DNA from: Escherichia coli
GTDB lineage: Bacteria > Pseudomonadota > Gammaproteobacteria > Enterobacterales > Enterobacteriaceae
Direction: 5' to 3' (one strand)
Assembly: GCF_016903815.1 (NCBI RefSeq)
Contig: NZ_CP069972.1
Length of the DNA stretch: 64,000 nucleotides
Below the pieces are notes generated by a model. It was not told the DNA's origin and ran no database searches. It was given only the letters and a program-made list of their open reading frames with translations. The position numbers and the translations under genes were made by a program. Positions 32,573-37,680 of this stretch are shown piece by piece (within the stretch, counting starts at the first letter, position 1; every line of letters starts with the position of its first letter).

Positions 32573-35270
32573 AACCTGGAGAAGGCGGTTCCCAGCGTTT
32601 ATCCTGCTCCGGCGGAGGCAGTGATGCGTCATCGTTGCTGTTCGCCGCGATATAATCGCGGTAGTAGCGTTCACTTCCTTCACGGTGATGATCCACGTCC
32701 GGTCGCGTAATCCTGTAGTCTTCGTGACCGGTACGGCCTGTCACATTATGCCAGGCAACCATTTCAGCAAAGACCTGGTTAAATTGTTTGTCGTTTCCTT
32801 CTGGTTCAAAACCCATGCGTGGATCACGCCCGAATAATACCGGTGCAATCAAATCCAGTTTATCTGCCAGCGCATTGCGGTCATGGTGATTACGGAAAAC
32901 AACCCTGTCACCATAATCCGTACAGACAAACTCTCCCGTCCGACGATCACGGAAACGAACACTCCCGTTCTTCTGCAAACGGGCCTCGAGATCACCGGTA
33001 TTACCGTATACCGGCGTTCCGCCCGGTTCACAAAGCACGACACAGCGGTCTGTTGTCGTTGTGCGTGACTTATCTTTACGGCGATCGCGATAATCCCAGC
33101 CTCTCAGCTGCGATACAGCAGCCCTGTCTCCCTGAGCAGCCTGAATTTCGACCCACTGACGGTAAGAGGGTGGATACCACTTCCCGTCAGCAATAAGTTT
33201 CTGCCGCTCATTCCTGATGTCTTCTTTCAGCCTGATCAATGCCTGCATTCGCTGAACTTCTGCAATGTGATAATGCAGCTTACGTAATGCCGGATCATCG
33301 TACTGCGCACGAATGTGTGACTTCCGCAGACGGCATGCCTGATGAATTTCCCGACAACGTTCCCCATAACGCAGATCTGGTTTACGCCATTGTTCACGCC
33401 ATGCCAGATAGCGGGCACGCAGGTCAGCACGGGCCTCAGCTCTGGCTTCACGTCGCTGCCGGCGCAGCATTGGGTCACGTTTACTGCTGACCCCGTACCT
33501 GTCACTGACAGCCAGCTCCGGGTTATAGCGACTTTCAGGTTGCACCCTGTCAAACAAATCTGCTGGGGCACTCACAAAAGGTCCGGCCTGTGGCTCTGCA
33601 CGCCCCAGAGTCAGATCAGGATGAATGCTGCTGGCCTTCACCGGCGTTTGCTCATGATTAAAGGCATCAACGACAACAAGCCCGTGATGTTGTTTCTGTA
33701 GCATCAGTCCCTGTTGTGCAAACAACTCATGACAACGCTGCCAGGTAAACTCACCCTGTGTGATCATTTCTTCAATCTGAGGGCTACAATGGCTGATGCT
33801 GTATCCCCACAGACTTTCTTTGTCAGAAAACAGTTCGCGTTTGATAGCCCCCTGCGGCCCCGTACCTGTACGCATACGGTGCCATTCTTTATCGGTCGCA
33901 GGACAGCTCTCCATACGACGACCACGGAAGCGTTCTGTTGGCGTAACCTGGAGGAAAATATCTGTTGGTACAGGCTGCCAGCCACCATCGAGTTGATTCA
34001 CATTGTCGAGCGTCAGCAGTGACCATACGCTGTCAGCACGAACGGGAGTCTGGTTATGATCATAACCGTCACAGATAACCAGGTGACCATGCTGAACACG
34101 CATCCATAATCCCGCTTCAGCCAGTGTGCGGTGAATAGCCTGGCAGTTTTCCAGCCGTCCTTCCCGTGCCATTTCCGGCAGACGTTCTCCAAGATGACGA
34201 CAGGCATACTGCTGCAGACTTTCTGTTTCAGCGATTTTTTCCGGGCGAACATCAGCTGCAATGAAGTCCGGATTATAGCGTCCTGGTGCTTCCACCTGGC
34301 TGAAAATGTCTTTTGGTACTGGCGTGTAGTCACCCATTTTTTTCATGAGTTTTTCTGCACACCAGGAGGGACCAAACGAGTCAAGCTGTACACCTTCCCT
34401 GTTGCGATCCCAGCCATCCATCACCAGAAATTTTCCGTCCATCTGAGACAGGTACAGACCATCTTCCGCAAGACGACGATGCAGGGATAACCAGTCATTT
34501 ACAGGTTCACTGCGTAAACCAGCGACCGCTGTCTGCGCGACATACTCGCGAAAAGTTTGTTTTTTTCCGCGTGTCCAAGCGTTCTGGCGATCACGTTCAA
34601 CGGCAGTTTTGCGAACGATACGATTTCCCGGCGCATGGACCCAGCAACCGTTATCCGGAGCAAAACCATGCTTCAGTTCAAGCTCACGGCAGGCACGACT
34701 GAGTTTTTCCTGACTCCATGATAATCGGTTCAGATAACCCGTTTCAGGGTGTACCCGGTTAACAGCCACATGGACGTGCAGATTATCTGTATCAGTATGC
34801 ACGGCAGAGACATACTGATGGTCGGCAAGGCCGAGTGATTTCAGCGTATGACGTACACTGTCATAAATCTGTTCCGGACGCGGGCTTTCATGTGACTGCC
34901 AGGAAAGGATGTAGTGAAAAACAGGATCAGTGTCATCTTTTGCATAGTGTGCCTGCCGGGCAATGTACTCCATATCTGCAGCGGCAGTTTCAAGAGAAGT
35001 ACAGTTATGAAAGCAGGTGACACCATAAAAGTTGACCCATTCGCAGCCGTCCTTCATGACATCAACCAGCGCCACGAATGACTCATTTCGAAGACGTGTC
35101 GCATAATCAACAAGGCGACTGAAACGGCTTCGGTGCGGTTGTTCAGCCTGCGAAGAAGAAGATAAATCCAGTTCCTCATCGGTCATGTCATCCCGGACAG
35201 AGACGTAGGATACCAGGTCTTCGAACGAAGACTTGCCGTCCCTTCTCTTTTTCGGAATGACTGCATTCAC
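32571..35270 (-). CDS. nikB: NikB, MobP-type relaxase (899 aa)
   Basis: Histidine triad ...NLHVHVAVNRVHPETGY; 899 aa; immediately downstream of nikA/oriT. Confidence 0.9.
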   Translation of the reverse strand: MNAVIPKKRRDGKSSFEDLVSYVSVRDDMTDEELDLSSSSQAEQPHRSRFSRLVDYATRLRNESFVALVDVMKDGCEWVNFYGVTCFHNCTSLETAAADMEYIARQAHYAKDDTDPVFHYILSWQSHESPRPEQIYDSVRHTLKSLGLADHQYVSAVHTDTDNLHVHVAVNRVHPETGYLNRLSWSQEKLSRACRELELKHGFAPDNGCWVHAPGNRIVRKTAVERDRQNAWTRGKKQTFREYVAQTAVAGLRSEPVNDWLSLHRRLAEDGLYLSQMDGKFLVMDGWDRNREGVQLDSFGPSWCAEKLMKKMGDYTPVPKDIFSQVEAPGRYNPDFIAADVRPEKIAETESLQQYACRHLGERLPEMAREGRLENCQAIHRTLAEAGLWMRVQHGHLVICDGYDHNQTPVRADSVWSLLTLDNVNQLDGGWQPVPTDIFLQVTPTERFRGRRMESCPATDKEWHRMRTGTGPQGAIKRELFSDKESLWGYSISHCSPQIEEMITQGEFTWQRCHELFAQQGLMLQKQHHGLVVVDAFNHEQTPVKASSIHPDLTLGRAEPQAGPFVSAPADLFDRVQPESRYNPELAVSDRYGVSSKRDPMLRRQRREARAEARADLRARYLAWREQWRKPDLRYGERCREIHQACRLRKSHIRAQYDDPALRKLHYHIAEVQRMQALIRLKEDIRNERQKLIADGKWYPPSYRQWVEIQAAQGDRAAVSQLRGWDYRDRRKDKSRTTTTDRCVVLCEPGGTPVYGNTGDLEARLQKNGSVRFRDRRTGEFVCTDYGDRVVFRNHHDRNALADKLDLIAPVLFGRDPRMGFEPEGNDKQFNQVFAEMVAWHNVTGRTGHEDYRITRPDVDHHREGSERYYRDYIAANSNDDASLPPPEQDKRWEPPSPG

Positions 35271-35280
35271 CGGAGAATCC

Positions 35281-35613
35281 TCAACCTTCCATTAACTGTT
35301 TACGCAATGTATTTGTAAGTTCGGTTATGGCAACAAGCACTTCTGCGTATTCCTTGTCACCGGTTCTTTTTCCCTGAACAAACAGATGCTTCTGCATCCT
35401 TCCCAGTCTCATTAACTCCTTCAGAAAAGCATCATCTGTCCGGGAGTTAATTCGCTTATTCAGTGCTGCATTTCGGATGTAAGCAGATACAGTAAGTCCG
35501 GAATCTTCAGCATTCTTACAGATAGTTTCATCCTCATCCGGTGAGAACCGGACCGCTCTCAGGATCGTCTTTTGCCGTCTTTCACTACCACTTCTTTGAC
35601 GTTTATCACTCAC
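35281..35613 (-). CDS. nikA: NikA, RHH relaxosome accessory protein (110 aa, GTG start)
   Basis: AAGGAG 7 nt upstream of GTG 35613; protein VSDKRQRSGSERRQKTILRAVRFSPDEDE...; track ORF extends 29 codons further without RBS. Confidence 0.85.
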   Translation of the reverse strand: MSDKRQRSGSERRQKTILRAVRFSPDEDETICKNAEDSGLTVSAYIRNAALNKRINSRTDDAFLKELMRLGRMQKHLFVQGKRTGDKEYAEVLVAITELTNTLRKQLMEG

Positions 35614-35619
35614 GGTCAG

Positions 35620-35720
35620 CTCCTTACTGGGGTGTCGGGGCGAAGCCCTGACCAGGAGGCAATTGTATAATCGCGCGTGCGCGGTTATACAATTGCACAT
35701 CCTGTCCCGTTTTTCAGTCC
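35620..35720 (+). other. oriT: oriT: 10-bp inverted repeats flanking a GC core (35661-35694) and IncP-like nick motif ATCCTG|T (predicted nic 35704/35705, + strand)
   Basis: AATTGTATAA-N14-TTATACAATT followed by GCACATCCTGTCCCG directly upstream of nikA. Confidence 0.65.
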
Positions 35721-35845
35721 ATTATAGCCTGTTATTTTTGTGCATCATAGTCTTATGCAGACGGCAGAGGCAGGGCGCAGCCCTGCCAGGAGTCAGTTTT
35801 TGATGATAAAATCAGGCTTCAACATTAAACGGAGAGAAAGTGCCA

Positions 35846-36181
35846 ATGGCGTCTAAAAAATTTTACTCAGATGATGACATCCAGCTGGCAAAAGCTGCTT
35901 TATCGGAATTGCCAGACCTCACCGCTCAACGGAAAACATTGCGTGATTTTCTTGATGCCATTCGTGATGACATCATTATCCTGGTAAGGACAAAGGGTTA
36001 TACACTGACAGATGTTCGTGACACGCTCAAAAATGCAGGATATGAAGTAGGAGAGAAAGCACTTCGTGACATTATTCGGGAAGCAGAATCGAAAAAACCA
36101 TCCCGCCGTTCTTCCTCTAAAACAGCACCTAAAAAGACAGACTCAGGCAGGAAAGATGGCATCGATATGAACAACAATTGA
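35846..36181 (+). CDS. Hypothetical protein with K/R/S-rich basic tail (112 aa)
   Basis: GGAGAGAAAG RBS before ATG 35846; C-terminal KKPSRRSSSKTAPKKTDSGRK. Confidence 0.4.
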   Translation: MASKKFYSDDDIQLAKAALSELPDLTAQRKTLRDFLDAIRDDIIILVRTKGYTLTDVRDTLKNAGYEVGEKALRDIIREAESKKPSRRSSSKTAPKKTDSGRKDGIDMNNN

Positions 36182-36266
36182 TGTGACAATGTCACATTGT
36201 GTTCTGAGATTATGATGATTACAGAAAAAAAAGCCCCGGCATAAATACCTGGGCTTTTCTGTTTAA

Positions 36267-37118
36267 TCAGACTCGTGGCGGCAATGCACCAGGATAATGC
36301 CGTGCAATAATATCATTCAGTTTTTCAACAAGGTCAGAACGCTTAAAGACAATGTGTACGGTCCCTTTCTGGTAGCCACGCACCGTAAAATATTCCCCTT
36401 CTAACAGCTTACCGACATTGTCACCGTTCCCGAGAAATTCACCATACTGCGCCCCGATGCTGTTCCTGAAGTCAGGAACGTTGCGCCCCTCCAGCAGATA
36501 AAACGGACGTACCAGGTCATCCAGTGCCTCCCGTCCGCTGCAGTCCAGCGTCACACGCCCGTTACTCCAGCGGTACAGTAGGTTTTCAATAATTATTTTC
36601 TTACCCAGACGGCAGGGATTATTGGTTCTGTAATCCCATGACAATTTCCGGTAGACATCAATCAGCCCCTGTTCAAACGTCTGCATCTTGCTGGCATTAA
36701 GATGGCGGAATGTTGCCAGTACATTGTCCAGGGTGATTTCAGGACAGGTGTCGCTCATCAGCTGGCTGTTCCACTCATCACGCTGGCATGAACTCATGAA
36801 GGTGTACATGCCCGTATCTGTCATCAGGCGGTCCCAGATTTTCCGGTCGGCAAGACGGGTGATATTCCTTTTCGCTTCTTCCGTCTTATCCATGCGACGA
36901 ACGGAATCAGTCACGCAGTCTTCAAACCCGTAAAGAAAAATATCACCTGACGCATCGAGCAGAATCTTGCGCGCTGTCGCCAGGCATTCCATCGCCTGCA
37001 TGAACAGTGCAATACCTTCGTTACGCTGCGCGATGATGCGGTCGATAGCTACAGACGGAATAACATCTGTCGTGCCGGCAGTATTCAGGTCAGCAGTGGG
37101 TAAAGTCTGATTCATCAC
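36267..37118 (-). CDS. Leading-region protein of unknown function (283 aa)
   Basis: Long ORF directly downstream (on - strand) of repeat A1; no motif recognised. Confidence 0.55.
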   Translation of the reverse strand: MMNQTLPTADLNTAGTTDVIPSVAIDRIIAQRNEGIALFMQAMECLATARKILLDASGDIFLYGFEDCVTDSVRRMDKTEEAKRNITRLADRKIWDRLMTDTGMYTFMSSCQRDEWNSQLMSDTCPEITLDNVLATFRHLNASKMQTFEQGLIDVYRKLSWDYRTNNPCRLGKKIIIENLLYRWSNGRVTLDCSGREALDDLVRPFYLLEGRNVPDFRNSIGAQYGEFLGNGDNVGKLLEGEYFTVRGYQKGTVHIVFKRSDLVEKLNDIIARHYPGALPPRV

Positions 37119-37159
37119 ATTGTCTCCTCATCGTCACGACTGCCGGGTCAGCCAGGTCA

Positions 37160-37495
37160 TTTCCCGGAGGAGCGAAGCTCCTTCTGCCGTCCGGGTCTTC
37201 GGGGATTTCCCCGCAGTGGACCTTTCCGACGGGGGACGCTCACCACGTCACGGGGCAGTTGTCCGGGGGCAGACGCAAAAGTTTTTGACGCCTGCGGCAA
37301 AAAGTTTTGTGGCTGGTACATCTCTCCCCTGGACGACTGAAACGGGATGTGGTCATGTATGTACCCCCGGAAAGTCCGTCTGCGGAGAACAGGCCGCAGT
37401 GCGGCGGCAGACAGGCAGAGACAGCTGCGCCATCAGGCGCAGTGGCCTTACACACCGTAAGGTGTGCAGGGAGCGCCGCATACGGCGCGACTGAA
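37160..37495 (-). repeat. Family-A GC-rich structured repeat, copy 1 (Frpo/ssi-like single-strand promoter candidate)
   Basis: ~335 bp highly similar to 40553-41055 and 46898-47400; many internal inverted repeats. Confidence 0.6.
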
Positions 37496-37592
37496 GAAAA
37501 ACGACGGCACAACAATGGCATGTGGTGGTCACTGGCACACCACTCCCGCACAGGTGAAAACAGAGAAAACCGCACGACATTTACAACCAAAA

Positions 37593-37680
37593 AAAGTGAA
37601 ATTTCTTCACTTTTTCACGCTTATTTTTCGCGTTGATTTGGTGATTATGATGATAAAATAAAGTGAAATTTTTTCACTTT
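37593..37680 (+). promoter_or_regulatory. Two AAAGTGAAA/TTTCACTTT palindromic operator-like sites bracketing a promoter-like TTGATT..TAAAAT
   Basis: Inverted repeat 37593-37616 and perfect 21-bp palindrome 37659-37679, directly upstream of HTH gene. Confidence 0.45.

Follow-up and report, generated by a model that had tools for sequence, protein, structure and literature searches.

The stretch of DNA considered here (the window) is 64,000 nt of an Escherichia coli plasmid (contig NZ_CP069972.1, assembly GCF_016903815.1). It raises the question of what a small, basic-tailed protein might do when its gene is the first to enter a recipient during conjugation and is carried in the sense that does not allow transcription on arrival. 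A preliminary description, made from the sequence alone, had singled out a nick motif, an inverted repeat and this gene, and had suggested a DNA-binding protein. The gene corresponds to yggA, with which, according to the literature, the leading region of R64 begins. It was already named but unstudied, and its placement in the StbA/TraK group of oriT-proximal regulators, which we make with moderate confidence, is the new part of what follows.

The transfer origin and its setting

The window belongs to an IncI1/B/O-type conjugative plasmid. A 1.1 kb query covering the 5' end of nikB, nikA, oriT and yggA was 100% identical to plasmid pMHMC-003 of Shigella sonnei, while the other 2232 matching plasmid records were mostly 90-99% identical. 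With most records at 90-95% identity over this query, the plasmid belongs to a minority lineage. In the identical record the relaxase gene is labelled as IncI1-type NikB, and nikA is a CDS of 333 bp, with TAAGGAG upstream of its GTG. Both genes (Table 1) adjoin oriT and are transcribed away from the leading region.

Table 1. Features of the oriT-yggA region (window coordinates; a slash marks the predicted nick)
Feature	Position (nt)	Strand	Basis or remark
nikB, MOBP-type relaxase, 899 aa	32571-35270	-	Pfam Relaxase 5.6e-31, TraI_middle 5.4e-18
nikA, ribbon-helix-helix relaxosome accessory protein, 110 aa, GTG start	35284-35616	-	Pfam NikA-like 6.6e-22
Core oriT	35629-35713	+	Limits set by the segment kept in small mobilizable plasmids
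GC-rich hairpin, GTCGGGGC-GAA-GCCCTGAC	35634-35652	+	8-bp arms, one mismatch
Inverted repeat	35659-35696	+	Arms 35659-35676 and 35679-35696, 18 nt, one mismatch, 94% complementary
Nick region, CATCCTG/T	35698-35705	+	Predicted nick between 35704 and 35705; MOBP consensus
Predicted nikAB -10, TATAAT	35721-35726	-	Direct reading; leading side of nick
Hairpin/palindrome, GGCAGGGC-GCA-GCCCTGCC	35769-35787		Perfect 8-bp arms, 3-nt loop; candidate operator
Predicted yggA promoter, CTGCCA-18 nt-TAAAAT, TG extension	35783-35812	+	Promoter scan
yggA CDS, 111 aa plus stop	35846-36181	+	ATG 35846, annotated start
N-terminal helical domain, residues 1-82, predicted StbA-like helix-turn-helix	35846-36091	+	
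Basic low-complexity tail, residues 83-111	36092-36178	+	Net charge +6, pI 10.6, 48% K+R+S
Terminator-like hairpin, bidirectional	36232-36258		Between yggA and a convergent DUF4942 gene

The segment between nikA and the leading region is the oriT of R64/ColIb-P9 type, which is already well known, and its geometry adds nothing new. The oriT region is matched by 3761 plasmid records, of which 1704 are typed as mobilizable. The small records among the matches listed (1.5-8 kb; a spread sample of the 3761) match only from query position 29-31 to about 101-115, i.e. window nt ~35629-35713, and since this is all that such small plasmids keep, the working core amounts to 85 bp. Its parts were compared across nine loci, namely those of ColIb-P9 (IncI1), Escherichia fergusonii, E. 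coli pSM107_NDM, Citrobacter, Leclercia, Tatumella, a Klebsiella MPF_I plasmid, IncL/M and the window itself, the intergenic regions of which are otherwise hard to align. Two blocks stand out as near-invariant, GGGGTGTCGGGGC-NNN-GCCCTGAC, found in all nine of these diverged oriT regions, and CACATCCTGTCCCG, which surrounds the nick. In R64 the 8-bp repeat is said to have a role in the termination of transfer. The arms of the inverted repeat behave differently, as they co-vary between plasmids: their sequence differs while complementarity is kept over 15-19 nt. In the window the repeat ends 8 nt before the nick, and this spacing is 7-8 nt in all of the nine loci except that of the E. fergusonii plasmid, where it is 10 nt. 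The nick-proximal arm is presumably the NikA site, as in the R64 literature. A 10-bp inverted repeat had been reported beside the nick in the preliminary description; the repeat is indeed present there, but its length was underestimated.

The nick motif itself was correctly placed on the + strand by that description. The heptamer ATCCTGT lies at nt 35699-35705, and its context, CATCCTGT (nt 35698-35705), fits the MOBP nick consensus (C/T)ATCCTG(C/T) (PMC3772185), with the leading region on the 3' side of the strand. As a stand-alone marker the heptamer was rejected, because the window holds 19 copies against 7.8 expected from shuffled sequences, probably owing to ATC-CTG being a favoured Ile-Leu codon pair. 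Judged by its arrangement, it is the composite of hairpin, repeat, spacer and nick that is specific and far from chance. The predicted nick is at what we take to be the position mapped in R64 by Furuya and Komano. No RNA family was found in an Rfam scan of nt 35000-37600.

A same-sense gene at the head of the leading region

Relaxases of the MOBP class cut after ATCCTG and remain bound to the fragment downstream of the cut by its 5' end; transfer of this fragment then proceeds in the 5' to 3' direction (PMC3772185; PMC7314908). It follows that the + strand from nt 35705 rightward is the first to enter a recipient, as had been assumed beforehand, and the gene orientations agree with this, since 18 of the 20 genes annotated from yggA rightward (including ardA, psiA, psiB and ssb) lie on the - strand, yggA being one of the two exceptions. 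For a gene that points toward oriT, the entering strand is the template and transcription is possible (PMC11541004; PMC12672017). This is the orientation of the leading genes that are expressed from single strands by way of Frpo/ssi elements, and yggA does not share it, having the sense of the transferred strand. As it lies 3' of the nick on the strand that carries the nick motif, it cannot be transcribed until second-strand synthesis has provided the complement, so that the earlier statement to this effect stands. The strand argument is right, yet it is valid for a whole class of genes: the Stb genes also lie 3' of the nick and are the first to enter (Guynet et al.), and both stbA (R388) and traK (IncP) have the same sense as the entering strand, making this a trait common to the class and not peculiar to the plasmid. 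The relaxase operon is affected in another way. As long as the entering strand is linear, nikAB and their predicted promoter occupy opposite ends of it, and expression of these genes therefore needs recircularisation as well as a complement.

The start of yggA is best placed at ATG 35846, which has GGAGAG 8 nt upstream, whereas the alternative GTG 35840 (113 aa, nt 35840-36181) is spaced only 2 nt from it. The strand and the K/R/S-rich tail given in the preliminary description are thus retained, while the length of 112 aa becomes 111 aa (or 113 aa from the GTG). The promoter predicted upstream has an extended -10 (TGnTAnnAT) which is kept in the pSM107_NDM, Citrobacter and Leclercia loci. Downstream, the hairpin listed in Table 1 is flanked by an A8 run and by UUUUCUGUUU, and folds on both strands (z-scores -4.5 and -5.2). 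With a predicted promoter on one side and a hairpin terminator on the other, yggA appears self-contained and dependent on double-stranded DNA. The gene is monocistronic and divergent from nikAB. In all eight further diverged loci of the comparison it is found at the same place, with a nikA-like gene on one side and the leading region on the other, and pointing the same way (IncL/M, the Klebsiella MPF_I plasmid, Leclercia, Tatumella, ColIb-P9, E. fergusonii, pSM107_NDM and Citrobacter).

The interval between nick and yggA would also hold the promoter of the relaxase operon. A perfect TATAAT (nt 35726-35721), 17-22 nt from the nick on the leading side, is likely to be the nikAB -10, and is kept as TATAAT or TATACT in the IncI-complex, Citrobacter and Leclercia loci; the predicted -35 is weak and the site was not called by the promoter scan. 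If both assignments are right, two promoters stand back to back within about 90 bp. Between them lies a palindrome (nt 35769-35787), which five of the nine loci have at +65/+66 relative to the nick, with compensatory changes (GGAC/GTCC and GTGC/GCAC) in its arms. Its position outside both predicted transcripts leaves two readings, an operator for a protein or a hairpin formed on the entering single strand. The palindrome resembles the hairpin at nt 35634-35652, 135 bp away across the nick. Arrays of stbDR type (9-bp direct repeats with 2-bp spacers and an 11-bp period) were not found in nt 35550-35900. A single stbDR-like 9-mer at nt 35740 (8 of 9 positions matching), which overlaps the putative nikA -35, was discarded, as TTGCATCAT with no more than one mismatch occurs 23 times in the window against 23.7 expected.

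The YggA protein and its remote relatives

The YggA family is small: when 1.84 billion proteins were searched exhaustively with a profile, only 106 cluster representatives came up. Conservation is concentrated in the N-terminal domain, where L19, P23, G51, Y52 and L61 are invariant or nearly so. The sequence of the tail is unconserved, but it carries a net positive charge in 60 of 62 family members, and its predicted confidence is low (pLDDT ~52). In databases the protein bears the name 'molybdopterin-guanine dinucleotide biosynthesis protein MobC', for which there is no support. Searches of Pfam and NCBIfam gave no match to molybdenum-cofactor proteins or to MobC of the ribbon-helix-helix type, and the name appears to be a 'MobC' mobilisation label that was wrongly expanded.

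Pfam and NCBIfam scans of YggA returned only sub-threshold transposase-HTH noise, a Foldseek search of the PDB gave only calmodulin-like helical noise, and a profile built from eight close YggA sequences found nothing useful in the PDB. AlphaFold2 predicted four helices with moderate confidence (pLDDT 64-65). The predicted structure has the three-helix helix-turn-helix fold seen in residues 1-75 of StbA, and of all solved structures it is the StbA DNA-binding domain that the predicted fold matches best. When the whole set of PDB sequences was searched with a profile built on 62 family members, matches were obtained to the sigma-54 (RpoN) HTH (7.8e-5) and to the DNA-binding domain of StbA of R388 (7pc1; 7.6e-4). 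When this broad YggA profile was aligned with the StbA family by hhalign, the whole StbA domain was covered (probability 84%, E 7e-6, 75 columns), including the unusual 'G-hydrophobic-acidic' turn of StbA (G65-Y66-E67), and in reciprocal HMM searches none of 1240 shuffled decoys reached E <= 0.01. The proposal that the product may be a DNA-binding protein is consistent with these predictions.

The relationship between YggA and StbA is, as judged from the profiles, a remote one. A core profile restricted to close relatives (E <= 2e-10) still aligned with StbA in the same register, but with a probability of 13% and an E of 2e-3, and the PDB match was lost; conversely, the StbA profile scores the close IncI-complex relatives of YggA in its hit list at E ~0.1 only. 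Since the similarity fades with the close-relative profile, the sequence link runs through intermediate proteins. The genes of two of these (P0137 and P0145) diverge from one for a NikA-like protein and have a gene for an ATPase of CbiA/ParA type behind them, as in stbA-stbB, and the locus of an intermediate (L012) carries the conserved hairpin too.

A link to TraK is fainter. Profile-profile comparison of YggA with the TraK family (DUF5338) gave E 1.2e-3 with a probability of 20%, while StbA compared with TraK by the same procedure gave a weaker result (E 0.049). A single TraK sequence matched the YggA and StbA profiles only weakly, and the TraK family alignment was used instead. The window protein has no match to PF17273 (DUF5338) above the gathering score, and one of the 62 family members matches it (3.7e-4). 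StbA, TraK of RP4, MobC of pTF-FC2 and YciA of R721 have previously been linked after seven rounds of PSI-BLAST, in a list from which IncI1 is absent (Guynet et al.).

A probable repressor of the relaxase operon, and its relation to known systems

We found no published experiment on the YggA of an IncI1 plasmid, and its role has been described as unstudied (PMC6112013). Several data sets on relatives bear on it nevertheless. In TnSeq of pESBL (IncI1), YggA (as Hp23) was scored with P 0.99 as non-essential, P 0.00 as essential for maintenance and P 0.01 as required for transfer, while nikA, nikB and oriT were scored as required. This in effect answers what deletion would do to transfer, a point raised in the preliminary description: the gene is not required. 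When the homologue Orf35 was deleted from pCTX-M3 (IncM), self-transfer stayed the same, whereas an oriT plasmid was mobilised more than 200-fold better and the mRNA of nikA, nikB and traH increased 40-, 23- and 80-fold, respectively (PMC6112013). In RP4, TraK represses both divergent oriT promoters, traJ and traK (PMC7314908), and in R388 StbA represses leading-region promoters, its loss increasing transfer 50-fold. Binding of oriT-proximal DNA together with repression of the flanking promoters is thus known for StbA and TraK, and may be deduced for Orf35 from the deletion phenotype. The present analysis shows the geometry of the sequence and its conservation, the orientation of the gene, the likeness of fold and the remote homology. 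The repressor phenotype and the dispensability for transfer come from the papers on these relatives; for YggA itself we infer where it binds, that it represses in IncI1 and what its tail does.

On these grounds YggA most likely binds between oriT and yggA and there limits the expression of nikAB and of its own gene, both in the donor and in transconjugants once they are established, a reading that we consider probable rather than assured. With moderate confidence, YggA may be placed in the StbA/TraK group, as a member without StbB, and equated with the published IncM repressor as its IncI1 equivalent. In such a scheme NikA would, by homology, occupy that arm of the 18-nt inverted repeat which is next to the nick, and NikB would cut the + strand 8 nt beyond the repeat, after CATCCTG, and lead it rightward into the recipient. 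The monocistronic yggA would be transcribed from an ordinary double-strand promoter, its product being a protein of StbA/TraK type with a three-helix HTH and a basic disordered tail. YggA would then occupy the intergenic DNA between oriT and yggA, where the nikAB and yggA promoters are thought to lie back to back, and, once bound, would hold down transcription of the relaxase operon and its own. Its site of action would be the donor and the established transconjugant; a new recipient would have no YggA until the complement is made, and there the nikAB promoter would be apart from its genes until recircularisation. The suggestion that the protein acts in the donor or after second-strand synthesis fits this scheme, given the same-sense gene and, by analogy, the derepression of nikA, nikB and traH on deletion of orf35.

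A broader proposal, which we offer tentatively and regard as doubtful in its entirety, is that YggA and its relatives form an StbB-less StbA/TraK branch belonging to MPF_I plasmids (IncI1, IncB/O/K and IncL/M, e.g. pOXA-48), bind the palindrome at nt 35769-35787 and perhaps the hairpin at nt 35634-35652, set the level of relaxase, and act as the main brake on mobilisation of the small plasmids, very numerous, that carry the oriT core alone. Plasmids of the IncI1 complex and of IncL/M rank among the main vehicles of ESBL and carbapenemase genes. If YggA limits the supply of NikAB as Orf35 does, it would control the mobilisation of passenger plasmids and leave self-transfer of the helper unaffected. 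If true, the StbA/TraK idea, of a DNA-binding regulator at the first-entering end, would extend to type I (Dot/Icm-like) conjugation systems that lack an StbB partner.

Other roles have to be weighed against repression. YggA could be a positive, architectural part of the relaxosome, which like TraK of RP4 wraps the DNA 3' of the nick and is needed for efficient nicking or transfer. The gene occupies the position of traK in an oriT laid out as in IncP, the profile similarity to DUF5338 noted above points weakly the same way, TraK covers about 200 bp of oriT DNA (PMC7314908), and a basic tail would suit non-specific contacts with DNA. We nevertheless consider this role unlikely: the pESBL data give a negligible score for a requirement in transfer, deletion of orf35 increased mobilisation and did not impair transfer, and small plasmids are mobilisable with the 85-bp core alone, i.e. 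without the yggA side.

The kinship with StbA, which in R388 is mainly a segregation protein, could alternatively mean that YggA is a positioning (centromere-binding) protein that tethers the plasmid to the nucleoid and affects conjugation only secondarily. The two proteins share a layout of two domains with an unconserved C-terminal part, without which StbA cannot position the plasmid. Such a function is, however, quite improbable here, as the region has none of the direct-repeat arrays that make up stbS, pESBL has its own par locus, deletion of which mislocalises the plasmid (PMC7602700), and the TnSeq maintenance score leaves nothing to suggest a segregation role. It could also be imagined that YggA made in the donor enters the recipient with the transferred strand, its basic C-terminal tail serving as a type IV secretion signal, and acts before its own gene can be expressed. 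This would account for a gene that stands at the very start of the entering strand yet is untranscribable from it, and for tails that are positively charged across the family without conservation of sequence. IncI1 systems do export proteins, such as the Sog primase, and in several type IV systems a positively charged C-terminus is the signal. However, DNA-binding proteins commonly have basic tails too, StbA included, and the gene is dispensable for transfer; this last role seems very remote. Repression of nikAB thus remains the preferred reading.

Among known systems, ColIb-P9 (IncI1) is the closest to the window and aligns with it throughout. It has the same GC hairpin, an inverted repeat of 17 nt (18 nt in the window), 8 nt to CATCCTG/T, the same downstream hairpin and yggA. 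The arms of the inverted repeat differ at several positions (GCAATTGTATAATCGCGC vs GCAATTGTAATAGCGTC), which might reflect a shifted specificity of NikA. The likeness to the StbA/TraK-type loci of R388 and IncP is one of arrangement, with a gene that lies in the nicked strand, directly past the nick on its 3' side, and diverges from the relaxase operon; Guynet et al. give this arrangement as the defining one. In R388, stbA is followed by stbB and stbC, whereas no gene for a deviant-Walker ATPase of StbB/TraL type lies downstream of yggA, the next gene being the convergent DUF4942 gene past the terminator. The proteins differ as well, since the basic tail of YggA is 29 aa long while the C-terminal part of StbA (7pc1) is a domain of about 65 aa. 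RP4 presents the same order, traI(-) and traJ(-), a + strand nick 8 bp from an inverted repeat, and then traK(+), and TraK binds the DNA between the nick and traK and represses both divergent promoters (PMC7314908). In both plasmids the relaxase promoter would be on the leading side of the nick, the traJ start of RP4 being 24 nt from it. Unlike the monocistronic and dispensable yggA, traK is the first gene of an operon, traKLM, and its product is described as part of the relaxosome.

Orf35 of pCTX-M3 (IncM) and the 'MobC' of pOXA-48-like IncL plasmids are clear homologues of YggA (the window protein shares 38-41% identity with the IncL/M-type homologues over the N-terminal domain), and their genes likewise stand beside an oriT of NikA/NikB type. 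Orf35 is the sole relative of YggA with a published phenotype, repression of nikAB-tra (PMC6112013). In the IncL/M plasmids nikAB heads the whole tra operon, through which Orf35 controls the entire transfer apparatus, whereas in IncI1 plasmids nikAB lies apart from the tra genes; the size and the consequence of any repression by YggA may therefore differ from those seen in pCTX-M3.

Hairpins around oriT and the 3' end of yggA

The perfect 8-3-8 palindrome that separates the nikA promoter from the divergent promoter of yggA lies at an equal distance from the nick in five of the nine diverged oriT loci compared, and the changes in its arms between loci are compensatory. It resembles the conserved GC-rich hairpin across the nick (nt 35634–35652), with which it has GGGCGnAGCCCTG..CCAGGAG in common, and could represent either a candidate operator or a candidate single-strand hairpin. 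The conserved hairpin contains GCGAAGC (nt 35640–35646), a sequence that forms a DNA mini-hairpin of unusual stability, closed by a GNA loop, and that may bear on single-strand recognition; the 8-3-8 palindrome has GCGCAGC.

At the other end of yggA, the 17-bp palindrome can fold into a hairpin of 8 pairs on the + strand and 7 pairs on the - strand, and is distinct from the terminator found farther downstream. It is similar to a pair of CRP half-sites, yet with a spacing of 5 nt. The convergent DUF4942 gene that follows is the first on the entering strand with an orientation that allows this strand to be used as template.

Features of the oriT region and of the metagenomic loci (coordinates in nt)
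Feature	Position	Strand	Remarks
nikAB -10 box	35721–35726	-	likely; on leading side of nick
8-3-8 palindrome	35769–35787		65 nt 3' of nick
17-bp palindrome, ATGTGACAATGTCACAT	36181–36197		overlaps yggA stop codon
DUF4942 gene	36267–37118	-	convergent with yggA
YggA-relative locus L012	51–1889		metagenomic
YggA-relative locus L013	3308–4935		metagenomic

Distribution of the nick motif and the oriT core

The heptamer ATCCTGT occurs 19 times in the whole window against 7.8 expected from dinucleotide shuffles, none of 100 of which reached this count. The excess probably reflects codon-pair bias (ATC-CTG) rather than additional nick sites. Among the plasmid records matching nt 35629–35713, 1704 are typed as mobilizable, and in the small records (1.5–8 kb) among the matches listed the similarity is confined to these 85 bp of oriT core and includes neither nikB nor yggA, so that the passenger plasmids served by the IncI-type relaxosome are very numerous.

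YggA relatives and the placement of the nikAB promoter

In public annotation the yggA product (nt 35846–36181) is named 'molybdopterin-guanine dinucleotide biosynthesis protein MobC', and a single cluster under this name holds 2695 sequences. The protein showed no match to molybdenum-cofactor families, and the name looks like a wrong expansion of the mobilisation label 'MobC'. The YggA relatives of the two metagenomic loci also score against the StbA profile, and each has a NikA-like gene on one side and a gene for a CbiA/ParA-type ATPase on the other, a layout that is a hybrid of a NikA-type relaxosome and an stbA-stbB-type pair.

Since the likely nikAB -10 box is situated on the leading-region side of the nick, the promoter would come to lie at the 5' end of the linear transferred strand, with the nikAB genes at its 3' end. 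A like separation of promoter and genes on the linear transferred strand has been reported for traJp of RP4.
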